Positions 16,500 to 61,123 of a stretch of 64,000 nt of DNA are shown piece by piece. The first letter of the stretch is position 1. Each line of letters opens with the position of its first letter. The stretch is taken from contig JAVBME010000007.1 of assembly GCA_031552765.1 (NCBI GenBank), positions 143,397-207,396 on the forward strand, read 5' to 3'. The DNA comes from Acidaminococcales bacterium (GTDB lineage: Bacteria; Bacillota; Negativicutes; Acidaminococcales; JAISLQ01). The translations under genes were made by a program, and so were the position numbers. Under the pieces are notes generated by a model that was not told the DNA's origin, did not search any database, and worked only from the letters and a program-made list of their open reading frames with translations.

Positions 16500-17738
16500 T
16501 TATAGCGAATAAGAGTCTATATTAAGGCCGAGCGCTTTGTTAAGGTCGATGATATCACCGTCACTGGTCCTTATCACAGGCTCTTTGAAAGCATAGTGGC
16601 TCCATATGATCTCCGCGCGCCGACCGTCGCCCAAAGTGACCCGGTTGCTCAAAATAAAATCTTTGAGGTACTCCCGGAAGACAAGGCACATATTGGAATC
16701 GAACAACTTGCTCCAAAACGGTAACTCATCGATGATCGCCGGCAGTTTTTTCCCTTCCTCTTCCGGCGCGAAGGGATACATGGCATTGTCCACCGCGTTG
16801 GCCAAGCCAAGTATGCGGGCATAGACGTGTATCTTTTCCGCCTTGATTTTGAGTGGGTAGCCGCTGCCGTCCATATGCTCGTGGTGGCCGCCCACGGCCA
16901 GCAGCACTTCCCGCGGGAAATAACGTTTGTCTTTGAGCATTTCTATGCCCTTCAAGACATGGCCTTGATATATAGCCGTTTCTTCGGCACTAAACACTTT
17001 CTTTCTCTTTCTTATCTCTTCAGGCAAGAACAGGCATCCTACATCGTGCAAAAGCGCGCTGACTATCACTATCTTGACGTCTTTTTCCGAAAGCCCCAGT
17101 AGTTTTGCCAGCTTGCCGGCCAAGACAGCCGTACGCACAGTATGCGCCGCCAAAGGGTCGGCCTGCATTTTATGTGGGTACAGACAATATCCTACGACCG
17201 CCACAGTCTTCGTCACATAATCGTTCAGCCTTACGGCCAAAAGGTTACAGTCGCGCAAGAACAAATCGCGCTCCCGCACATCGCCGCCAAAGAGCTTGTC
17301 CACTTCCGCCATTATGCCTACATAGGTATCGAGCGCCTCGACATTGAGTATGCTGCCTATCTTTACTGCTTTACCGGACAAAGCGGTCTCCCGCCCGTCG
17401 GAATATAAATGCTTGTCCCCGTTGCCGGACATCATGGAAACGATGTTATCCATGGTGATACCCAAATCAGCTCTAATAGAAACCCGTTTTTCTTTAAGCT
17501 TCTCTTTGCTCTGCTCCTCCTCAGCCTGGCGGTCTGCTTTCAGTTGCTCACGCAAAGACTGGTCGGTATCGCTCTCTTCGCGCACCCTGATAAACTCGAT
17601 GTTCCAGGTACGCAGAATCCCGGCATGGCTTGGCGTTATCTCCATATTCGCTTCTAAAAGGACATTGTGCCTGGCATCCGTGATGCGTTCGGCGGTAATC
17701 ATCCCAGCCGCTATATCATCGCGCCTAACCCTCTTCAT
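16500..17738 (-). CDS. HD-GYP domain protein (putative c-di-GMP phosphodiesterase), DUF3391-like N-terminus
   Basis: LLHDVGC..GGHHEHMDGSGYP motifs. ORF track start is TTG 17756; ATG 17738 downstream of GGAGG is preferred. Confidence 0.85.
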   Translation of the reverse strand: MKRVRRDDIAAGMITAERITDARHNVLLEANMEITPSHAGILRTWNIEFIRVREESDTDQSLREQLKADRQAEEEQSKEKLKEKRVSIRADLGITMDNIVSMMSGNGDKHLYSDGRETALSGKAVKIGSILNVEALDTYVGIMAEVDKLFGGDVRERDLFLRDCNLLAVRLNDYVTKTVAVVGYCLYPHKMQADPLAAHTVRTAVLAGKLAKLLGLSEKDVKIVIVSALLHDVGCLFLPEEIRKRKKVFSAEETAIYQGHVLKGIEMLKDKRYFPREVLLAVGGHHEHMDGSGYPLKIKAEKIHVYARILGLANAVDNAMYPFAPEEEGKKLPAIIDELPFWSKLFDSNMCLVFREYLKDFILSNRVTLGDGRRAEIIWSHYAFKEPVIRTSDGDIIDLNKALGLNIDSYSL

Positions 17739-17858
17739 AGCCCAAATCGCCTCCAAAAAATATTAACCTGCCCAATATAACCATACCATTAAAATATTAA
17801 TATTCTCCTGTAAACGCTCAAATCCTCTTTTCTAACCGGCAAAGATTTATATAAATAT

Positions 17859-17888
17859 CCCCCGGCCTAGCCGGGGGTATTTCTTTAG
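17859..17888. terminator. GC hairpin, possible bidirectional terminator
   Basis: CCCCCGG-CCTAG-CCGGGGG with T-rich sequence on both sides. Confidence 0.45.
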
Positions 17889-17907
17889 CGGACATAGCCA
17901 TTTTCTA

Positions 17908-18063
17908 CTAGCAACGTCTAAATGGGGTATATACGCTCTGCCACACGCGAAAAAGATTTGCGTAATCCATACATATACCTTCACATACCAAACACCCGCT
18001 ATAATGCCTAGTGTTCCTCTCGCAAACTACTTTTGTATATGATAAGCTATGTTTGTCATTCAC
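17908..18063 (-). CDS. Possible 51-aa Cys-rich small protein (GTG start)
   Basis: Own translation: (M)NDKHSLSYTKVVCERNTRHYSGCLVCEGICMDYANLFRVWQSVYTPFRRC. An AAGGAGG SD lies 9 nt upstream of the GTG. It falls below the ORF-track size cutoff, and coding status is unproven. Confidence 0.3.
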   Translation of the reverse strand: MNDKHSLSYTKVVCERNTRHYSGCLVCEGICMDYANLFRVWQSVYTPFRRC

Positions 18064-18191
18064 ATTGGATGACCTCCTTTTGATTTTTACTTGCAGTTGA
18101 CAGACCGCAAATTTATATTATCAAAAGGAGTTTTAATATTGTTACTCACCGCTGTAAGCTTTTTTGAACCGCACGTCTAACGTGGGGTTTT

Positions 18192-18323
18192 CTATGCAAC
18201 AAGAAAGGGTACTGTGAGAGCAATCTTTCTTTCCAAAAATGCTTTCAAAAGATTTCTTTGGTTGTATAATGTCAGCTCTTCGTTATCGTTAATTATTAAT
18301 TGTTCTTGTGTATTTTTACTCAT
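18192..18323 (-). CDS. Possible 43-aa small protein
   Basis: Own translation: MSKNTQEQLIINDNEELTLYNQRNLLKAFLERKIALTVPFLVA. A GAGGGA SD is present. It lies 22 nt downstream of the PH-domain gene. Confidence 0.3.
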   Translation of the reverse strand: MSKNTQEQLIINDNEELTLYNQRNLLKAFLERKIALTVPFLVA

Positions 18324-18345
18324 ACATTTTCCCTCGTAATTATCT

Positions 18346-18852
18346 TCATAATTTTTCTTTTTTGTCATTTAATGCTTTAGCAAGATTACTGCTATTCGGT
18401 GTATTAATAATGTAATATTCATTTGCATAATTTATAACTATATCTTCTTTACCGCCTCTATACATAAAAACAACTGCCTCTTTGCCATTTCTCAATTTAA
18501 AAAGTCCTGTTTTTAGTTCATTAGTTCCTAAACCATTTATGCGTGTGCTGATTTTCCACTGCCCATCGTCTGTTGTAAAAACTTTAGCACCACTTAGATC
18601 AATTGCTTTCTTGTATGAACCTGATTGTATATATAAAATATCCTTATCAATACTATACCCAGAGCCGGCTGAACTAAAGCCTATATACAGAAGCACTAAT
18701 ACTGGAATTATTGGCCCCACCAAAGCCACTTTTGAATTGTTATGCACATAAAAATATATACCCATAACAAATGGAACAACAATAAATATCGCGCCTGTTA
18801 TGTTAAACAGCGCCGCTTTTATTACCATATCAAAAGTCACTTTAAACTCCAT
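18346..18852 (-). CDS. Membrane protein with bacterial PH-like domain
   Basis: Two N-terminal TM helices followed by a beta-rich about 100-aa domain resembling bPH (YdbS/YdbT-like). Low GC relative to its neighbours. Domain call made by eye. Confidence 0.55.
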   Translation of the reverse strand: MEFKVTFDMVIKAALFNITGAIFIVVPFVMGIYFYVHNNSKVALVGPIIPVLVLLYIGFSSAGSGYSIDKDILYIQSGSYKKAIDLSGAKVFTTDDGQWKISTRINGLGTNELKTGLFKLRNGKEAVVFMYRGGKEDIVINYANEYYIINTPNSSNLAKALNDKKEKL

Positions 18853-18897
18853 TTAATGCCTCCTTAAATTAATGTTGGTACTGTCAAGTTTTATGCG

Positions 18898-18935
18898 CAA
18901 AAAGAAAAAGGCTTGCATCTCTGCAAACCTTGAGT
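18898..18935 (-). terminator. Terminator after tRNA-Ala
   Basis: Minus strand reads GGTTTGCA-GAGA-TGCAAGCC followed by TTTTTCTTTTT. Confidence 0.5.
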
Positions 18936-18940
18936 TTACT

Positions 18941-19016
<76 letters not shown>

Positions 19017-19117
19017 ACGTACTGCGCCGGCTGCTGCCGACGTTTTTTATTATAAGCGATAGGCATGTTTGTTGTCAATGCTTATTTGGTTATTTTAGCA
19101 TTTCGGCCGACCGCCTC

Positions 19118-20227
19118 TTAGACCATGTATTTTGCTATTTCCTTGCTATAATTTCTTTTGCCGATATTAATGAATTTTCCCCGTTCGGTTTTTACTACCA
19201 GGTCGTCTGTGCCGTGTTTTCCGATATAGAATATGACTGCTTTTTCGCCATTTTTGAGGATGACTTGTTTGCCTTTTAGAGAGTCGCGTATCTGCACGAG
19301 CATGGACAGGCAGCTTCTGGCGTCCATCTTTTTAAACATTTCGTCGTCGAGTATCTCCATGACGGCCAGCGGCGCCCGCCGCGGCTGGTAGACCCGGTCG
19401 GTGGTGACAGCGTCATAGGTATCGGCGACGGCTATTATTTTGGAAAAGTCATGTATCCTTTCAGCTGTCAGCCCAAAGGGATAGCCGCTGCCGTCGATGC
19501 GTTCGTGGTGTTGCAGACAGGATTGTACTACTTCATCGGGCACGCCTTTGATTTGTTTTAGCATATCATAGCCGAGTACTGTATGCTTTTTCATGATTTC
19601 AAATTCTTCCGGGGTAAGTTTACCGGGTTTGTTCAATATTTCGAGCGGGATCTGCGCTTTGCCTATGTCATGCAACATGCCTGCCAGCACCAGTATTTGC
19701 AGGCGTTCTTCATCCACCTTGAGCCAGCGGCCGATTATCCCGGCCAGGATCCCGACGTTGACCGAGTGCTGGTATGTATAGTCATCACTGCCCCTGAGGT
19801 TTTTGACCACATGGACTAGTGTATAGTTTTCCATCAGTCCTTCTACAGTGTCTTTGGTAGTGTCCATCATTTGTTCGAAGGAAATGCTTTTAAATTGCCG
19901 TGCTACATCGAACACGTTTTTCACATAGGAAACTGTGCCGACGTACTTTTCGACAACGACTTTCTTTTCTTCCTGAGTATAGTCCTCGAGTTTTCGGCTG
20001 GCCAGAGAAAAGTCTACGAGCTTTTCCTCTTCTTCCGACTCGTCCTTACTCTCTTCGAAAAGAAAGATATTTACAGTGAAAATCTCACCGTAGCTAGATA
20101 TTTGGCGCAAAGCTTCTTCCGTCAGCAGCTCGCCGCTGTTTAAAATGACATGGTTTCTTATAACGACAGGTTCAGCTAACAGCATACCTGGTTTAAGTTC
20201 TTCCACCATGAGCCGTTTTGTTGCCAC
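19118..20227 (-). CDS. HD-GYP domain protein (putative c-di-GMP phosphodiesterase), DUF3391-like N-terminus
   Basis: MLHDIGKAQIP..QHHERIDGSGYP..ADTYDAVTTDRVY. Start moved to GTG 20227, 5 nt after an AAGGAGGTG SD. Confidence 0.85.
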   Translation of the reverse strand: MATKRLMVEELKPGMLLAEPVVIRNHVILNSGELLTEEALRQISSYGEIFTVNIFLFEESKDESEEEEKLVDFSLASRKLEDYTQEEKKVVVEKYVGTVSYVKNVFDVARQFKSISFEQMMDTTKDTVEGLMENYTLVHVVKNLRGSDDYTYQHSVNVGILAGIIGRWLKVDEERLQILVLAGMLHDIGKAQIPLEILNKPGKLTPEEFEIMKKHTVLGYDMLKQIKGVPDEVVQSCLQHHERIDGSGYPFGLTAERIHDFSKIIAVADTYDAVTTDRVYQPRRAPLAVMEILDDEMFKKMDARSCLSMLVQIRDSLKGKQVILKNGEKAVIFYIGKHGTDDLVVKTERGKFINIGKRNYSKEIAKYMV

Positions 20228-20340
20228 AGACTCACCTCCTTTTTTGCATATGGATTTGATTAGATTTAAATGCACTTTCTAGAATATATTATGTATAGTA
20301 TATCCTAAAAAGCTCTTTTTTTCTTTACAAATTTTATTCA

Positions 20341-23300
20341 CTATGTAGCCGCGGGCAGTTGCTCGTATACTTTTTCAAAAACATCTACCAGCACAGGGTC
20401 AAAGTGCCTGCCTTTGTCGGCAACGATGATTTTCCTGGCTTCTTCTTTGCTCATAGCCTCTTTATAGGGGCGCTTGCTTATGAGTGCGTCATAAACGTCC
20501 GCTATGGCCATCAGGCGGGCAACAAAGGGTATCTCTTTTTCTCTGAGCGCTTGCGGATAACCGCTGCCGTCCCATTTTTCATGGTGGTACATAGCTATTT
20601 CACGGGCTATATAGAGCATGTCGTCAGATTCTAGTTCTGAGAGGGCATCGTCTAAAAGCTTCGCTCCTTTGGTAGTGTGGGCGCGCATTATGGCCCATTC
20701 AGCGTTGCTCAGTTTGCCTGGTTTTAAGAGGACATTGTCAGGAATGGCCACTTTACCGATGTCATGCAGTTGCGAGGCGCGTATGATATTTTTCTTGCGC
20801 TCTTCGTCCAGTTTTTGTTCGGCAGCTACTTCTTCCGGTATATTGTTGAGCAAGATGCCGACAAGCTCCTGGGTACGCTCGATATGGTTGCCGGTGGCGC
20901 CGTCGCGGTATTCTGTAGCAGTGGCCAACATGCCAACTGTTACTTCTTGCAGCCTGAGGATGGTCGCCGTTTTCTCGTCCACCAGGCGGCTCAGGTGGCG
21001 CCGGTAAGCTTGCAGCTCTATGTGCGTTTTTATCCTGGCTAAAACCAATTGCGGCTGCACGGGTTTATGTATGTAGTCAACCGCGCCCATCTCCAGGCAC
21101 TTTATCTCCCGGTCATAGCCCTGTGTACCGGTGAGGAAAATGACAGGTATCTCCCTGCAATCAGGCCGCGCCTTCAGTTCGGCAAGAAGCTCGAAGCCGT
21201 CCATCTCCGGCATTTCGATGTCGAGAATGATAAGGTCGGGTTTTTTGTTATCAAGCATTTTAAGCGCTTGCTTGCCCGAGTTTATGGGTACGGCTTTATA
21301 TATCTCACCCAATATTTTTTGTAGCAGTTTAAGGTTTGTAATGTCGTCGTCGACAATAAAAACCGTATTTTTGCGGTAATAGTTGTAATCGAGTTTATCG
21401 AGCAGGACTTTCACCAATTTGCCGAGGTTTTCTATGCTGCCATTTTCCAGAAGGACAAGAGCGCTTTGGGCAAAACTGCCTATCCGCTCGTCACCCATAC
21501 TGTCTATTTCCGTTATGACGTCTCTCGCCTTTTCCAATTCACCCAGCAGCAGGGACTGCTGCAAAGCCTGAAAAAGTTGTTTTAGATCATAATGAGCGCT
21601 TTCCTGGCTGGAGAGCGCGGGTTTTTCCTCTCGCCGCTCAAACAGGCCGGCCAAATCCCTCTGAAGCTTTTCCAAAGACGTGATAAAATGCGGCATTCTA
21701 GCTACGGCCGCGGTATTAGCGTCATTTACCAGGTCTTTTTCTATACCGGCCGCTTCTTGTGAGATGACATTCGCGCCAATATTGGCCAAAGCGCTTTTCA
21801 TGCCGTGCACTTCTATTTTCAGGCGGTTGTAGTCGCCGTTTTCCTGTACTTCGAGCATGAAAGGTATCTTCTTTTCCAGTTGTTCGCTGCACGCTTTGAG
21901 AACAGTGATATAGATGGCCGGATTATTGAGGGTGTGTTTAAGGCCTATGTCAACATCTACCTCTTGAATACCGGACATTACTTTTTTCAGTTCTTCCAGA
22001 CCGGTTGAAGGCGATAAAGAAAGCGCGGCCGTTGCAACAGCGCCAAACTCAGCTGCCGGTGCAGTCATTTTTTCCTGCGGCAACCATTTTTTTAGCATGG
22101 CGCTCAGTTTATTGAGCTCGATGGGCTTACTCAAAAAATCATTCATACCGGCGCTGGTAAATTCCCGCCGCGCTTCGTCAAGGACGTTGGCCGACAAGGC
22201 CACGATAGGAACATTAAGGTATTTGCCGCCAAGCTTTCTTATGGCGCGCGCCGCCTCTACACCGGTCATCTCCGGCATCATATGATCCATGAAAATGATG
22301 TCGTAGTCGGCTTTGCCGAGAGTTGCCAGGGCCAGTTTGCCGCTGGATGCCGTCTCTACATCGATATTGAACTGTTTCAATAGATACGATGCTACATGGA
22401 GATTTACTTCGTTGTCGTCTACTACCAACACACGGGCGTTTTTCGTACAAAATAACAGCGCACGGGTATTTTCTACCGCCTGGTTGGCGCTTTGCGCTCC
22501 TTTGTCGTTGAGCATGTCGGCAAGCGATCTTACCTGCAAGGGCTTAAACATGATGATATCGCCGTAGTTTGACGTTAGCGAAGTTACCGCTTCCGGGCTG
22601 GTCAATACACCTATTTTCTGGTTTTCTACCCGAGTTATTTTGCGCTCCTGGTCTTTCGGCGAATAGTCTATGATGATATGCGTATATTTCGACAGATCGT
22701 ATTTCTCACCGCCGCTGCCCGGCTTAGGCAGTACGGCCGAGGCCACGCCCAGTTTTTTCGCCATACAAGATACGTTGTCCGCCAAAAGGGCGTTGTCTGT
22801 GCATATGGCCAGTTTGGTCGAATCGGCGTTTAATAGCATAGCCATAGGCTGCTGGACAGCTATGGTCTGCTTAAGCGCAAAGGAAAAGGTGGAACCTTCG
22901 CCGTAAATGCTGTCTATGTAGAGCTCTCCGCCCATGAGTTCGACCAGGCGTTTTACTATGGGCAGGCCGAGGCCGGTACCTGGGCAGTCTTTTTTGTCAG
23001 CAGCGTCAAAAGGTTGGAAGGCGCGGAAAAGATTGGTCATATCGCTTTGCGCTATGCCCCGCCCGGAGTCTTTTACAGAAAAAACGACCGTTATCTCTTT
23101 GTCCGTGCGGCTTTTTATCTCAAGGGATAGCTTTATATAGCCGGAGTCGGTAAATTTTACAGCATTGGACAAAAGGTTGAGCAGGGTTTGCCTGATACGG
23201 CCGCCGTCGCCGCACAGCGAGTGCGGGATGAACGGATCGATGTCTACTAAAAATTCCAGATTTTTTTCTGAAGCGCGGAAATTTATTATGTTGATGACAT

Positions 23301-24093
23301 CGGTCAAAATAGATAAAATATCGTAGTCTTTTTCACAGATGTTTAGGTTATTGCTTTCTATCTGGTTAAAGTCCAAAATATCGTTTATTATATCAAGAAG
23401 CGAACTTGAGGCTTTTTTGATATTGACGACATGGGCGGCGTCGGTCTGGTTAAGCTGTGACAATAAGAGAAGGTCGGCCATACCTAGTACGGCGTTCATC
23501 GGCGTCCTTATCTCATGGCTCATCTTAGCCAGAAAATCGCTTTTGACCTTAGCGGCCGCTTCGGCTTTTTCCTTGGCTTCGGTCAATTCGGTGATGTTGT
23601 GCTGCACTACGACAACGCCGAGGCATTCGCCCTGCTGGCCGGTCACCGGCGCTACCAGCATGTTTACGTGTACCCGGGAGCCGTCAGCTTTGAGTATTTT
23701 TTCGGTATATTGGGCGTTGCACTGACTGGCTATGACATGTTCAAAGCATTGTGTGATATTGTTTATCCATTTTGGATCCACTATGTCTTCACAGGCAACA
23801 GCAAAATCCATGCCATCGAGTTCTGCCGCGCTTTTGCCGAAGAACTCCCTGTTAGCTATGGTGGAGCCAAGGACGTATTTTAAGTCGCGATTGAGGACAT
23901 AAAAAACATCCGGGCAGTTTTCTAGAAAAAGCCGGTTGTATAAATGCTGCAATTCCCGTTCGCGTTCGTTTTGGTCGCGCAGTTGCTCGGCCTGCTCAAA
24001 AGCAATGGAAAGATGGCGGAAATCCGCCTGCATACGCTTTAGTTTGCGCTGTAAAATGGTATTTTCTTGTTGCGCCTTTTTGATTTCTTCCAT
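20341..24093 (-). CDS. Cytoplasmic hybrid histidine kinase fused to a full phosphorelay and an HD-GYP output (coiled coil-PAS-HisKA-HATPase-REC-HPt-REC-HD-GYP)
   Basis: H-box MSHEIRTPMN and G-box GTGLGLPIVKRL. REC1 is VLVVDDNEVN..IIFMDHMMPEMTG and HPt is VHGMKSALANIGA. REC2 is VFIVDDDITN..LIILDIEMPEMDG. HD-GYP is QLHDIGKVAIP..YHHEKWDGSGYP..ADVYDALISKRPY. No TM segment seen. Confidence 0.9.
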   Translation of the reverse strand: MEEIKKAQQENTILQRKLKRMQADFRHLSIAFEQAEQLRDQNERERELQHLYNRLFLENCPDVFYVLNRDLKYVLGSTIANREFFGKSAAELDGMDFAVACEDIVDPKWINNITQCFEHVIASQCNAQYTEKILKADGSRVHVNMLVAPVTGQQGECLGVVVVQHNITELTEAKEKAEAAAKVKSDFLAKMSHEIRTPMNAVLGMADLLLLSQLNQTDAAHVVNIKKASSSLLDIINDILDFNQIESNNLNICEKDYDILSILTDVINIINFRASEKNLEFLVDIDPFIPHSLCGDGGRIRQTLLNLLSNAVKFTDSGYIKLSLEIKSRTDKEITVVFSVKDSGRGIAQSDMTNLFRAFQPFDAADKKDCPGTGLGLPIVKRLVELMGGELYIDSIYGEGSTFSFALKQTIAVQQPMAMLLNADSTKLAICTDNALLADNVSCMAKKLGVASAVLPKPGSGGEKYDLSKYTHIIIDYSPKDQERKITRVENQKIGVLTSPEAVTSLTSNYGDIIMFKPLQVRSLADMLNDKGAQSANQAVENTRALLFCTKNARVLVVDDNEVNLHVASYLLKQFNIDVETASSGKLALATLGKADYDIIFMDHMMPEMTGVEAARAIRKLGGKYLNVPIVALSANVLDEARREFTSAGMNDFLSKPIELNKLSAMLKKWLPQEKMTAPAAEFGAVATAALSLSPSTGLEELKKVMSGIQEVDVDIGLKHTLNNPAIYITVLKACSEQLEKKIPFMLEVQENGDYNRLKIEVHGMKSALANIGANVISQEAAGIEKDLVNDANTAAVARMPHFITSLEKLQRDLAGLFERREEKPALSSQESAHYDLKQLFQALQQSLLLGELEKARDVITEIDSMGDERIGSFAQSALVLLENGSIENLGKLVKVLLDKLDYNYYRKNTVFIVDDDITNLKLLQKILGEIYKAVPINSGKQALKMLDNKKPDLIILDIEMPEMDGFELLAELKARPDCREIPVIFLTGTQGYDREIKCLEMGAVDYIHKPVQPQLVLARIKTHIELQAYRRHLSRLVDEKTATILRLQEVTVGMLATATEYRDGATGNHIERTQELVGILLNNIPEEVAAEQKLDEERKKNIIRASQLHDIGKVAIPDNVLLKPGKLSNAEWAIMRAHTTKGAKLLDDALSELESDDMLYIAREIAMYHHEKWDGSGYPQALREKEIPFVARLMAIADVYDALISKRPYKEAMSKEEARKIIVADKGRHFDPVLVDVFEKVYEQLPAAT

Positions 24094-24284
24094 TGTTAGG
24101 CGGCTCCTTAAATTAAGGTTGTTTTTTATTTTACCATATTTCTTATATAAAATTACACAGCAAAATGCAGAAAATCTAATATGGGAAAGCAGATAATTTT
24201 TATTAATTAGTATTGATTAATTTTATATTTTACCATTTATATTGTAAAAATTCAAAACTTTTTAAAAAACGGCCAAATAAATAG

Positions 24285-24322
24285 ATAAAAAAATAGCCAC
24301 CGTATGTAGTGGCTATTTTTAT
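24285..24322. terminator. Bidirectional terminator between the hydrogenase-like gene and the hybrid kinase gene
   Basis: ATAGCCAC-CGTATGT-AGTGGCTAT hairpin flanked by an A-run upstream and a T-run downstream. Starts 2 nt after the stop at 24324. Confidence 0.7.
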
Positions 24323-24323
24323 C

Positions 24324-25424
24324 TTAGAATCTACGTGTAAAAAACTTATTGTCTTCAATAAGGCTGTCGGTCGTTTCAAAACCCAGGCGCATCAGGAGAG
24401 CTATGACGTAAGGATTATCGATAGGCGTTGGATAGAGGGCCTCTTCACCATATTCGTCCACTTTCACTGTGGCGTCGTCTTTATTGATGATGGATTTGGG
24501 ACCGCCGACACAGCCGCCGACACAGCCCATGCCTTCATAAAAGTTCGCTTCTATTTTACCTGCTGACAGCTCTTCCATCATAGCGCGGCAGGCGGCCACG
24601 CCATCCGCCTGTTTGGCGCGGATGGGAATTTTCCTTGTCGGATGGAGACGCACCAGAGTGGCTCTCACCGCCTCGCTGACTCCACCCGTATGGGCGTATA
24701 TACGCCCGGCGCGCGAGGAGAATTCTTTCTCGTTCTCCTGCATTATTTTAGGGTTTATCTTCATGGCCTGAAAAAGCTCTACTGTTTCCTGGAAGGTCAG
24801 GACATGGTCTATAGCGCCCTTGAGGTCCGGCTCTTTGGCTTCGGCCTTTTTAGCAAGACAGGGGCCGACAAATACTGTCATAGCCTCTGGGTGCAGTATT
24901 TTTACCGTGCGACCGGCCGCAATCATCGGCGACACAGTCGCCGGTACATGCGGCATCAGCTGGCCGTAGATCTTTCTTATCATGGCCAGCCACATCGGGC
25001 AACAGCAGCTGGTCAGCTGGTAGTCTGTTTCGGTATTGATATTTTGGTCAAATTCAAGCGCTTCCTTTAAAGTAAGGATATCGGCAAAGACCGCTACTTC
25101 CAGCATGCCGTCAAAGCCCAGTTTTTTAAAGGCGCTTCTTAACATGCCGGGCGTAACGCCAGCGCCGAACTGGCCGAGAAAGGCCGGCGCGACGAGCGCA
25201 TAGCTGTATTTAGGCTTTGCGCACAAGCCGTTTAGTACTGCGGCTACGTCGCGGCTGGCTGTCTCAGCAGCCTTGCAGGCGGCCTCGTTATCTATCGGCG
25301 GTTGCTTTTTGGGTGAAAAAAGACAGTTGAGCTGGCTGCGGTCAAATTCTTCAAAGTAATCGTCTCCCGTCTGCCGTTTGCCAGTGAGTACGATGCGTTC
25401 GTAAAGTTCTTTGAATGTCAACAT
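24324..25424 (-). CDS. [FeFe]-hydrogenase H-cluster-domain protein without accessory Fe-S domains
   Basis: Three H-cluster motifs are present in variant form: TSCCCPMW (L1), GPCLAKKAE (L2) and EGMGCVGGCVGGP (L3). The N-terminal 75 aa has no ferredoxin-type Cys clusters. Confidence 0.8.
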   Translation of the reverse strand: MLTFKELYERIVLTGKRQTGDDYFEEFDRSQLNCLFSPKKQPPIDNEAACKAAETASRDVAAVLNGLCAKPKYSYALVAPAFLGQFGAGVTPGMLRSAFKKLGFDGMLEVAVFADILTLKEALEFDQNINTETDYQLTSCCCPMWLAMIRKIYGQLMPHVPATVSPMIAAGRTVKILHPEAMTVFVGPCLAKKAEAKEPDLKGAIDHVLTFQETVELFQAMKINPKIMQENEKEFSSRAGRIYAHTGGVSEAVRATLVRLHPTRKIPIRAKQADGVAACRAMMEELSAGKIEANFYEGMGCVGGCVGGPKSIINKDDATVKVDEYGEEALYPTPIDNPYVIALLMRLGFETTDSLIEDNKFFTRRF

Positions 25425-25800
25425 TGGTATTTCCTCCTAATTTTTATAGTTCAAAAATATTAAAGCGGTTTCGCATTTTCTATATGTAAAATGACAACAA
25501 AATCAGCCGCCGGCATTGAGCAGCTGAAACACAATATTTTTGCTGGCAATCATTTTGTAAATATTATAACATAAATATTTGCTTTTTGGCCTGGTTTAAC
25601 TATCTAATTTATTTATGATAAAAGATAAAAAAATAAACATAGGTTAACGAAATATATGAATTTTCATGCTATTTTCGCGTTTATTATTTCTAAGTATAAA
25701 GTCATGCCTATACAGCAAAACAAATATAAAAATTGCCATATTAACAAAAGCATAATATACTAAAATGACTGAATATCATGAAAATGGGAGCGATATCGCA

Positions 25801-58363: not shown

Positions 58364-61123
58364 TTACATACTAAATAAGTGCTGCTTGCTTTTCAGTTCA
58401 TCAAGCGGTATGGGTTTGCTAAAGAGATAGCCCTGCACGAGGTCGACGCCTTCGGTGGCAACGATCTGGTACTGTTCCCTGGTCTCCACCCCTTCGGCGA
58501 CAAAAGATATGCCGGCGGCGTGCGACAGGCTGACCATGGTAGTAAAAAACTTCCGAAGATAGCTGTTGCTTTCTATGCCCCAGACGAAAGACCGGTCGGT
58601 TTTTATTATATTTACCGGCAGTTTATAAAGATTGTAGAGCGAAGAGTAACCTGTGCCGAAATCATCAAGGGCTATCTTGACACCGATTTTTTTCAGTTCG
58701 GCCAACCGTTCTATGATGATATCAGTTATAAATAGTTCGATGCTTTCGGTGATCTCAAGCGTCAGCATTTGCGGGGGAAAACCATGACGTGAGAGTATGC
58801 CCATAGTCTTGGCGACGAAGTTTTCATCGTAAAGAAGTGAAGCCGGTATGTTTACGGCGGCCCGGAAATTTGGATAGAGCGTAAAGCCGTTGACTGTCAT
58901 TTCTTTAGCCACATTTTCTAGTATCCAATAAGTGATATCGTCGATAAGACTGGTCTGTTCAGCCATCGGAATGAATACGGCGGGAGAGACACTGCCCAGT
59001 TCCTTGCTGTTCCAGCGGCATAGAGCTTCGACTGTCCGCCAGGCGCCGTTTTGCGCGAACACCAAAGGTTGGTAGTGTATGGAAAAACCGTTGAATTCCT
59101 CATGCACCGCACTGCGCAGAAGGTTTTCCATATATTGCCGTTTACTGATGTTCTCTTCCAGGGCATGGGAAAAATGCAATTGGCGCATGTTTTCATGCTT
59201 CTGGACCGAAGCGAGCGTTATTTCCGCTTTGCGCAAAAGCTCAGACACATATGTGCCGTTCTCCGGGAAAGACACTATGCCAAGGCAGGCCTGCGCGTAT
59301 ATATTGCGGCCATCCACCGTCCAGGCTTTATTAAAACGTAAAGTGACCTGCCGGCAGATGTCGTCTAGTACGGACAGGCTGTCATTTTTCAACAGCAGTA
59401 AAAACTCATCGCCGGCAAACCTGTATACACAGTCTACCAAAGCCGGCATGCCGCATAAAAAATCGCGCATATGCCATAGTACGGCATCGCCGACCGCATA
59501 ACCGTAGGCTTCATTTATTTTCCTCAAGTCGTCCACGCCCAATAATACGATGGCGCCTTTATGGCCGGCGGCGATAATTTTGTGCAGGTCTTCTTCCAGC
59601 TTGTAGCGGTTGGGTATATCCAGCAAGCGATCGTAGTAGGCTATATGTTCGGCTTTTATTTTAGATATTTTCTGTTCGGTAATGTCGGAAAAAGTGTACA
59701 GTTCCACCGGCCGGCCGTCGAGCCATTTAACCTTAGAGCAGTTGCCCTGGTACCAGCGGTTTTCCCCGGCGTTGTACTTTTCCCAGTATGTTGTTTTCTC
59801 CAGCAGGGAAAAAACCGGATGCTGCAATCTTTCTTCCGCCTGGCCGATAAGCGCGTTGCCGTTTTTGCCGTCCGGCTGGCAGTTGTCATTGGCAAAAAGA
59901 ACCGTCCTGGTATCCGGGTCGAGCACGAGTATGCCAAACTTCATGGTGTTGAGCACCCGCATGGCATGGTCACTGCTTGATTGCAGCTGCATTTGGGCGT
60001 TTTTTTGCAGCAGCACATTGCCGATTATTTGGCAAAAGTATTTAAGTGTATTGTGTTCGCTGGGGTTGTTTTCAAACCTGTCCAGTTGGGCGTTTTCCAG
60101 TGTAAGAACCCCGTACAGCTCTTGGCCGCGTTTTATCGCCCCCTGCACGATCGTGCGCGTGCCTTTGCTGGCATTTTGAACCATTATCTTGTCCACGTTT
60201 TGATATACCGGATGTGAGCTCGTTCTAATGTTTTTGATGTATATCGTATGTACTTGGTAATAATCCCGGATAATGTTCCACTCTTCCGGCCGCATATTAT
60301 AAAATATGCAAAAAGGCCTTTGTGTATCGCCAGTCTCCTGGTACCAGCAATGTACAGGATAATCCATATGGCTTTCGCCGATATAGGCGCGGTCTGCGCC
60401 GTAATATTGCGCCAGTACAATAAGCATCTTGTTTATGCCTGTGTGAAGGTCGGTGGAGTTTGCGGCATCCAGCATGGAAACCAGGACCTCGCGCCGGCCT
60501 GTGATAATAGACAATGCCCCTTCGCTGATAGTGAGTTGACGCGTTTTATCGGACAATTCCGCTTCCAGGTTCCCCAACCGCATGATGCAGGCAGCCATGT
60601 TTTCCAAAAAATAGCTGAGAAAACGAAGCCTATGCGCCGGTATGGCCGGCAGTTCTTCTATGATGGCGCGAGCCGCCGTATAGGGCAAGCGCGCTTGCAT
60701 GGCCTTTTTTTCTATCAGAGAAAAGTCCATGTCATCAAGCCTTATCTGATCAAGCACCAGGCTGGCAAGGTAACGTCCGTTCAAAAAAAGAGGCGCAACG
60801 CAAATTTTCAGGCCGGTATGTGGGCATGTGTATATGCCGCTCTTTTTTTCCCCTTCCCGTCCGCCAAGTATCGCATTGTAATAATCTTTTTCCGTATCGC
60901 CGACGCCTGCCAGGCGTTTGGTCAAATAGGAACAGCCGTTATGCCGGTTGCTGGGGCGGGTGACAGCATAACCGGTCGTATTTACTGTGACTGCGGCGCA
61001 GCCGAGGGCTTTTGCGAAAGAATCCTGCAAATGCTGGATATAATCGATGTCCAGTTTGATTTTTTGCAGAGTTGATAAGGGAGTCTTTTGCTGGTATGTA
61101 GAAACATCAAACAATTGTAGCAC
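58364..61123 (-). CDS. PocR-GAF-PAS-GGDEF-EAL c-di-GMP turnover protein
   Basis: N-terminal PocR-like sensory domain. GGDEF domain carries RFAGDEF. EAL domain carries VEALCRW, DDFGTGYSS and EGVETREQ. Confidence 0.9.
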   Translation of the reverse strand: MLQLFDVSTYQQKTPLSTLQKIKLDIDYIQHLQDSFAKALGCAAVTVNTTGYAVTRPSNRHNGCSYLTKRLAGVGDTEKDYYNAILGGREGEKKSGIYTCPHTGLKICVAPLFLNGRYLASLVLDQIRLDDMDFSLIEKKAMQARLPYTAARAIIEELPAIPAHRLRFLSYFLENMAACIMRLGNLEAELSDKTRQLTISEGALSIITGRREVLVSMLDAANSTDLHTGINKMLIVLAQYYGADRAYIGESHMDYPVHCWYQETGDTQRPFCIFYNMRPEEWNIIRDYYQVHTIYIKNIRTSSHPVYQNVDKIMVQNASKGTRTIVQGAIKRGQELYGVLTLENAQLDRFENNPSEHNTLKYFCQIIGNVLLQKNAQMQLQSSSDHAMRVLNTMKFGILVLDPDTRTVLFANDNCQPDGKNGNALIGQAEERLQHPVFSLLEKTTYWEKYNAGENRWYQGNCSKVKWLDGRPVELYTFSDITEQKISKIKAEHIAYYDRLLDIPNRYKLEEDLHKIIAAGHKGAIVLLGVDDLRKINEAYGYAVGDAVLWHMRDFLCGMPALVDCVYRFAGDEFLLLLKNDSLSVLDDICRQVTLRFNKAWTVDGRNIYAQACLGIVSFPENGTYVSELLRKAEITLASVQKHENMRQLHFSHALEENISKRQYMENLLRSAVHEEFNGFSIHYQPLVFAQNGAWRTVEALCRWNSKELGSVSPAVFIPMAEQTSLIDDITYWILENVAKEMTVNGFTLYPNFRAAVNIPASLLYDENFVAKTMGILSRHGFPPQMLTLEITESIELFITDIIIERLAELKKIGVKIALDDFGTGYSSLYNLYKLPVNIIKTDRSFVWGIESNSYLRKFFTTMVSLSHAAGISFVAEGVETREQYQIVATEGVDLVQGYLFSKPIPLDELKSKQHLFSM

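Follow-up and report, generated by a model that had tools for sequence, protein, structure and literature searches.

Organisation of the hydrogenase gene

A 64,000-nucleotide stretch of an Acidaminococcales genome (assembly GCA_031552765.1, contig JAVBME010000007.1, positions 143,397 to 207,396), here called the window, was analysed with a focus on one gene encoding a homologue of [FeFe]-hydrogenases. The gene and its own signals were assigned as follows.

24324..25424, minus strand: group B2-type [FeFe]-hydrogenase gene consisting of the H-cluster domain (H-domain) only, from an open reading frame (ORF) of 366 aa and a match to PF02906
25433..25438, minus strand: ribosome-binding site AGGAGG of the hydrogenase gene, read directly from the sequence, 8 nt 5′ of the ATG
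24289..24320, minus strand: intrinsic terminator of the hydrogenase gene, a 13-bp stem followed by a T-run

The called start was the first start codon past a stop, so no upstream extension of the ORF was possible. With 4929 homologues at E ≤ 1e-5, the ORF is not a chance product. On its 5′ side, an AT-rich spacer of 340 nt led to a divergent gene. Neither neighbour encoded an iron-sulfur protein, and the gene was framed by its own ribosome-binding site and terminator. An earlier interpretation made from the letters alone, here called the sequence-only reading, had placed a terminator between the hydrogenase gene and the next gene. Folding bore this out: the hairpin at 24320..24289, followed by the T-run, had a free energy of -18.8 kcal/mol and z = -4.97 against shuffles (-5.0 when rounded).

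H-cluster motifs and group assignment

Pfam returned PF02906 as the sole match (aa 73-309, E 1.5e-61). The best NCBIfam match was TIGR04105 for monomeric group B enzymes with 252.5 bits, covering only model positions 211-461/462, which correspond to the H-domain. The group A model TIGR02512 reached 111 bits versus 252 bits for TIGR04105. Both databases place the protein with group B and not with group A. The TIGR04105 (FeFe_hydrog_B1) cut-off of 450 bits was not reached at 252.5 bits, nor was it by long forms of the same family, which scored 302-338 bits. With a range of 252-338 bits, the family is a sister subfamily lying outside the 'B1' set of NCBI. Three H-cluster motifs were located in the protein.

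24990..25013, minus strand: L1 (P1) motif TSCCCPMW, aa 138-145, with supernumerary Cys140, proton-transfer Cys141 and ligand Cys142
24840..24872, minus strand: L2 (P2) motif FVGPCLAKKAE, aa 185-195, with Phe185/Gly187 as a CpIII-type pair, ligand Cys189 and conserved Lys192
24498..24536, minus strand: L3 (P3) motif EGMGCVGGCVGGP, aa 297-309, with Met299, Cys301 and Cys305

The description in the sequence-only reading was accurate at this level: the 366-aa protein carried all three motifs with L1 exactly at 25013..24990, Gly187 stood in place of Met in L2, and all four cysteine ligands of the [4Fe-4S]H subcluster were present. These ligands, C142, C189, C301 and C305, aligned with C300, C355, C499 and C503 of CpI and were invariant in an alignment of 46 family members. 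Further retained residues were the proton-transfer Cys141 (CpI C299), the relay residues Glu121 and Glu124 (CpI Glu279 and Glu282), Lys192 (Lys358) and Met299 (Met497). These were invariant across the 46 sequences, as were Pro80 and Pro166. All three motifs were found in all of the approximately 115 retrieved relatives with an intact gene.

The motif TSCCCP is reported to define subgroup B2/M2a, with 75 occurrences among 274 group B sequences and none among 955 sequences of group A or C. L1 was of the type found in CpIII of Clostridium pasteurianum (ITSCCCPMW) in every family member retrieved. In CpIII, F266 and G268 replace T351 and M353 of CpI, M225 follows the P1 proline and A162 replaces S232. 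The window protein held F185 and G187, M144 and A81 at these positions, thus matching the CpIII motifs residue for residue. Group B enzymes lack the proline upstream of P1, and it was missing here too (..TDYQLTSCCC..). The likeness extends to the other B2/M2a enzymes, MeII of Megasphaera elsdenii and ToHydA of Thermosediminibacter oceani. The group shares TSCCCP(M)W without an upstream proline, F-x-G-P-C instead of T-x-M-P-C, Ala for Ser232 of CpI, L3 of the form ExMxCxxGC and a monomeric enzyme from a stand-alone gene. Numbering pointed in particular to MeII, in which C182, C183, E163, E166, N170 and P203 equal C140, C141, E121, E124, N128 and P161 of the window protein plus 42 exactly.

CpIII (~305 µmol H2 per min per mg), MeII and ToHydA (~100) are active hydrogenases. 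Since they carry the same motifs, the motifs of the window protein speak for catalysis. The sequence-only reading had taken the motif changes as a pointer to a sensory or non-hydrogenase protein. This was not supported, because the same residues occur in the active B2 enzymes; by comparison with these, the 'altered' L1, L2 and APA motifs are the normal B2/M2a signature. Motif 'variants' of this kind should not be taken as sensory signatures before comparison with the group B consensus.

An AlphaFold2 model computed from the 46-sequence alignment was of high confidence, with a pLDDT of 86.6 and a pTM of 0.89. In Foldseek it superposed on CpI, CbA5H, DdH and HydA of HydABC over ~365 columns, with a TM-score of ~0.7 and a probability of 1.00. 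No solved group B structure was among the sequence or fold matches; all matches were group A enzymes with ~22% identity. The H-domain fold is complete in the model.

Loss of the F-domain

The segments flanking the H-domain were delimited by alignment.

25209..25424, minus strand: N-terminal segment, aa 1-72, a remnant after loss of the F-domain, from alignment with long forms
24327..24497, minus strand: conserved Cys-free C-terminal tail, aa 310-366, YPTPIDNPYVIALL..RLGF..FTRRF, from the alignment

The N-terminal segment contained three scattered cysteines (34, 50 and 68) and no CxxCxxCxxxC run, and Pfam gave no Fer4 match in the protein. The proposal of an H-cluster-domain-only homologue without F-clusters was therefore upheld: PF02906 was the sole domain and the N-terminal 72 aa lacked an Fe-S cysteine motif. 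Relative to the long forms, a gap of ~40-50 aa removed all eight F-cluster cysteines. Cys50 and Cys68 were not conserved and were replaced already in a relative with 89% identity. Cys34 (in QLNCLF; codon 25323-25325), Leu35 and Pro38 were invariant in the 46 sequences, in short and long forms alike. The tail showed the invariant residues Y325, T333, P334, N337, P338, L343, L344, R346, L347, F362 and R364, and a weaker version of it was present in a CpIII-like representative of 457 aa.

M2 architecture comprises an N-terminal F-domain with two [4Fe-4S] clusters, and apo ToHydA holds ~11 Fe; in this the B2/M2a enzymes differ from the window protein. As the eight cysteines were deleted and no Fer4 match was found, the protein has an H-domain of the B2 lineage but is not an enzyme of M2a architecture. 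By sequence signature it belongs to B2, and it lies outside both the M2a architecture and the TIGR04105 cut-off. Judged from the alignments, the real peculiarity of the gene is the lost iron-sulfur electron-relay domain and not its motifs.

Three length classes were distinguished in the family. Forms of ~410-420 aa occurred in Lachnospiraceae, Oscillospiraceae and other Clostridia. They carried C-x-C...C-x3-C and C-x2-C-x2-C-x3-C, with a total of nine cysteines N-terminal to the H-domain. Peptococcia-type forms of ~425-440 aa had a different N-terminus. The third class, of ~364-376 aa, lacked ~40-50 aa with all eight cluster cysteines. Carriers of this short form were the window genome, Anaerosinus, Massilibacillus, Sporomusa aerivorans, Anaerospora, Propionispora, Pectinatus (three species), Megamonas and several metagenome-assembled genomes of Selenomonadaceae and Veillonellaceae. 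It was found in every Negativicutes relative sampled. A scan of the genome collection gave no locus identical to that of the window, the best match having 67% identity. In a neighbour-joining tree of the H-domain, calculated without bootstrap, the Negativicutes short forms made up one branch. The short form of Anaerosacchariphilus (Lachnospiraceae) fell on a separate branch of the same tree, which suggests an independent loss of the F-domain.

Compared with its closest homologue (89% identity), the window gene showed a pN of 0.077 and a pS of 0.754, the latter being saturated. Low pN against saturated pS indicates a maintained functional protein and no decaying fragment; the substitution pattern is that of strong purifying selection on the short form.

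An exhaustive search of representatives yielded further F-domain-less proteins with TSCCCP or SCCCP, namely P0122, P0123 and P0129. P0129 (321 aa) carried TSCCCPLW and had just ~20 aa ahead of the H-domain, the N-terminal segment being absent altogether. It may represent a group B2 enzyme reduced even further, or a gene called too short. In P0124 (4122 aa), the H-domain was matched in 14 separate stretches with 33% identity. This is either a giant protein with multiple H-domains or a mis-assembled or mis-called gene.

Predicted function

The gene probably encodes a catalytic, monomeric [FeFe]-hydrogenase of group B2 (M2a lineage) whose N-terminal F-domain, the site of two [4Fe-4S] clusters, has been lost, giving it the layout of the algal 'M1' enzymes in a bacterium. 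The best-supported role was that of a stand-alone, ferredoxin- or flavodoxin-linked, H2-evolving enzyme whose donor would dock at the H-domain. HydE, HydF and HydG, with genes in another part of the genome, would insert the H-cluster. Electrons would come from ferredoxin or flavodoxin, reduced for instance by pyruvate:ferredoxin oxidoreductase (PFOR) and docking directly on the H-domain beside [4Fe-4S]H, as PetF does on algal HydA1, and excess reducing power would be vented as H2 in fermentation. The TSCCCP loop may permit reversible protection of the Hinact type. The gene would be transcribed alone, outside the neighbouring cyclic di-GMP (c-di-GMP) phosphorelay.

Precedents for such a role exist. 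In Bacteroides, group B hydrogenases reoxidise PFOR-reduced ferredoxin in fermentation, and omics surveys of Selenomonadales have binned group B hydrogenases as fermentative. H-domain-only hydrogenases are active in algae and DPANN archaea. In Megamonas sp. UBA1796 (L013:6075-9650), a PFOR gene of 1191 aa directly preceded that of the short form in the same orientation, which fits the route from PFOR via ferredoxin to the hydrogenase.

Several observations weigh against a catalytic enzyme of this kind. No hydE, hydF or hydG was found in the 64-kb window or within 10 kb of the ~115 relatives, where a regular expression was used to look for the HydF signature, along with radical-SAM proteins of fitting size. 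Cys34 is invariant, both in short forms, which lack any N-terminal cluster, and in long forms, which have eight other cysteines for two clusters. Two relay positions were unlike CpI, with Pro161 at Ser319 and Asn128 at Arg286. MeII shares both, and its proton pathway was called 'less well defined' by its authors. By residue numbering, MeII itself appears to be a long form of the family.

The missing maturase genes in the window would also suit an H-domain protein of the Nar1/NARF type, with Fe-S clusters only, no [2Fe] subsite and a function other than H2 chemistry. Loss of the F-domain could mean relaxed or changed function, and the NCBI family name is generic only. However, Cys141, Lys192, Met299, Pro80, Pro166, Glu121 and Glu124, which are needed solely for chemistry at [2Fe]H, were invariant in the 46 members, and the family falls inside group B, among hydrogenases of demonstrated activity. 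A Nar1/NARF-like role is accordingly very unlikely.

A two-component enzyme was also considered, in which the window protein would be the catalytic subunit and a separately encoded Fe-S protein would replace the F-domain as electron relay. An operon-like array in a locus of Selenomonadaceae type (L084:6106-8891) could be read in this way. Behind the short-form hydrogenase gene, closely spaced and in the same orientation, came a 40-aa ORF and genes for a polyferredoxin-like Fer4_5 protein, a protein with a thioredoxin fold and an HD-GYP protein. Some long-form loci had a Fer4_19/CDGSH protein or a 438-aa Fer4 protein nearby, and an archaeal group B enzyme has been modelled as a HydA-HydC heterodimer. 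Yet neighbour clustering in two independent locus sets revealed no conserved partner gene, Fe-S protein or other, across ~28 short-form loci. Small ORFs adjoining other short forms were not ferredoxins, and no Fe-S gene flanked the window gene between its own signals. Long forms showed synteny with housekeeping genes (GreA, tRNA synthetases, OGG and MatE). An Fe-S partner subunit is thus unlikely, though it was the strongest of the alternatives to a stand-alone hydrogenase.

Comparison with other H-domain-only hydrogenases

Descriptions of H-domain-only enzymes have been confined to algae and, more recently, DPANN archaea. The algal M1 enzymes (Chlamydomonas HydA1 and Uronema UbHydA1) resemble the window protein in having an H-domain without accessory clusters and are the presumed model for direct ferredoxin docking. 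In contrast to it, they are eukaryotic group A enzymes linked to photosynthesis, with TSCCP and MPC motifs and ~22% identity. The F-domain loss observed here is independent of the algal case and occurred within group B. The ultraminimal group E and A1 enzymes of DPANN archaea are likewise prokaryotic and H-domain-only, and H-cluster binding and H2 production have been demonstrated for them. They differ in belonging to other phylogenetic groups, in their archaeal origin and in their condensed loops, whereas the window protein has full-length loops and N- and C-terminal extensions.

A natural F-cluster-free form common to the Negativicutes sampled would extend independent loss of the F-domain to bacteria, in the little-studied group B2 lineage. 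It would raise the question of the electron route to the H-cluster in these fermenters and would offer a small scaffold (~41 kDa) with the TSCCCP loop implicated in O2 protection of ToHydA. The short form is of moderate interest for hydrogenase specialists and ordinary otherwise.

Neighbouring signalling genes

Downstream of the hydrogenase gene, two further features were assigned.

20341..24093, minus strand: hybrid kinase of 1250 aa with the Pfam domains PAS-HisKA-HATPase-REC-Hpt-REC-HD-GYP, the downstream neighbour
24220..24248, minus strand: promoter-like site TTTACA-17-TAAAAT for the downstream kinase gene, with 10 of 12 consensus positions

The identification of this neighbour as a PAS-kinase/HD-GYP fusion in the sequence-only reading agreed with its domain order. 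The promoter-like site was situated between the hydrogenase terminator and the start of the kinase gene, and by its position marks the latter as a separate transcription unit. As both terminator and promoter-like site lie in between, separate transcripts are probable, in keeping with the earlier caveat that the two genes were not obviously co-transcribed.

Upstream of the hydrogenase gene, a terminator-like hairpin with a T-run was present in the presumed 5′ leader (25503-25527, minus strand), ~80 nt before the start codon, accompanied by a promoter-like sequence (25533-25561). Over its full length, the leader folded no better than shuffles (z = -0.66), and an Rfam scan of the gene flanks gave sub-threshold noise only. 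The hairpin could be an attenuator or due to chance.

The adjacency raised the question of an H2 or redox sensor feeding the PAS-kinase/HD-GYP phosphorelay. Putative sensory hydrogenases of groups C and D (TmHydS and TamHydS) share H-domain homology with the window protein; a signalling gene next door is a further likeness for this one genome. What these groups have in common is a C-terminal [4Fe-4S] domain, to which group C adds a PAS domain. They lack the proton-transfer cysteine, a loss cited as an argument for slow sensory turnover. They also possess N-terminal clusters. The window protein had none of these features: its C-terminal 57 aa were free of cysteine, which excludes a sensory-type C-terminal cluster, no PAS domain was matched, and Cys141 was kept. 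Its motifs were those of active enzymes.

Synteny gave a mixed picture. In the closest relative, a congeneric contig from the same sample (L080, 89% identity), a kinase homologue with 61% identity followed directly downstream on the same strand, and the upstream flank differed. Conservation of the kinase adjacency held for this relative only; ~24 other short-form loci had no signalling neighbour. Unrelated neighbours were found in Anaerosinus, Massilibacillus, Sporomusa, Anaerospora, Propionispora (two species), Megamonas, P. frisingensis and others, including RecQ, a TonB receptor, LysR, MarR, BioY, a transposase, PFOR, transketolase and sugar genes.

HD-GYP genes occurred within four genes of the hydrogenase in several lineages, represented by the window, L039, L084, L067/L114 and the Peptococcia type. 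In Pectinatus brassicae (L039), an HD-GYP gene was present at position +2. In the first locus set, all 7 of 7 matches of an HD-GYP hidden Markov model were within two genes of the hydrogenase, a striking association that did not survive de-replication. With both locus sets pooled, enrichment was nominal at 95% de-replication (9 near versus 1 far, p = 0.005) and gone at 80% (p = 0.16), and is therefore not robust to shared ancestry. Hydrogenase/HD-GYP pairs of the Peptococcia type were mostly convergent. Genes of c-di-GMP signalling abound in this genome; within the window there are three consecutive HD-GYP genes and one for a GGDEF-EAL protein. With such density, a chance adjacency of hydrogenase and kinase is plausible. 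In Thermoanaerobacterium, the group B hydrogenase HfsD has been reported in one gene cluster with a sensory hydrogenase.

Overall, nothing solid was found for a hydrogen-sensor role, and a sensor signalling to the adjacent kinase is improbable. Still less probable is a related idea, that F-domain-less group B hydrogenases are soluble reporters of H2 or redox state read by neighbouring HD-GYP or PAS proteins. If true, this would tie hydrogen metabolism to c-di-GMP turnover in Firmicutes, and the recurrence of HD-GYP beside the family would be functional, including the array in L084 and the PAS-GGDEF-HD-GYP genes of the Peptococcia type. A catalytic group B2 hydrogenase outside the phosphorelay remained the favoured assignment.

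Further features of the loci

The HD-GYP row downstream of the hydrogenase gene (16500-24093, minus strand) comprised genes at 20341, 19118 and 16500, encoding the 1250-aa hybrid kinase and proteins of 385 and 418 aa, with a bPH_5 gene between the last two. The GGDEF-EAL gene (919 aa) was located at 58364-61123 on the minus strand; the c-di-GMP neighbourhood is unusually dense. PAS-GGDEF-HD-GYP genes stood tail-to-tail with B2 hydrogenases of the Peptococcia type at L065:11157-12701, L069:10890-12395, L072:11143-12666 and L116:2522-4045. Directly 5′ of the short form of Pectinatus brassicae, a gene for a 160-aa protein (L039:9215-9697) looked SufU/IscU-like by eye. Three preceding ORFs on the same strand (from 5527) may complete a suf cluster for Fe-S assembly.

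A large cluster of glycan or O-antigen type extended from 25765 to 52607 of the window, its start divergent from the hydrogenase gene. It contained genes for a nucleotidyltransferase, CDP/dTDP-sugar dehydratases and epimerases, two radical-SAM/SPASM proteins, methyltransferases and glycosyltransferases. FkbH-like, KAS III, B12-binding radical-SAM, PseG and gmd genes were also present; an exact look-up of the gmd protein matched no record. The cluster included a low-GC island, with 33-35% GC at 30-38 kb versus 45-55% elsewhere.

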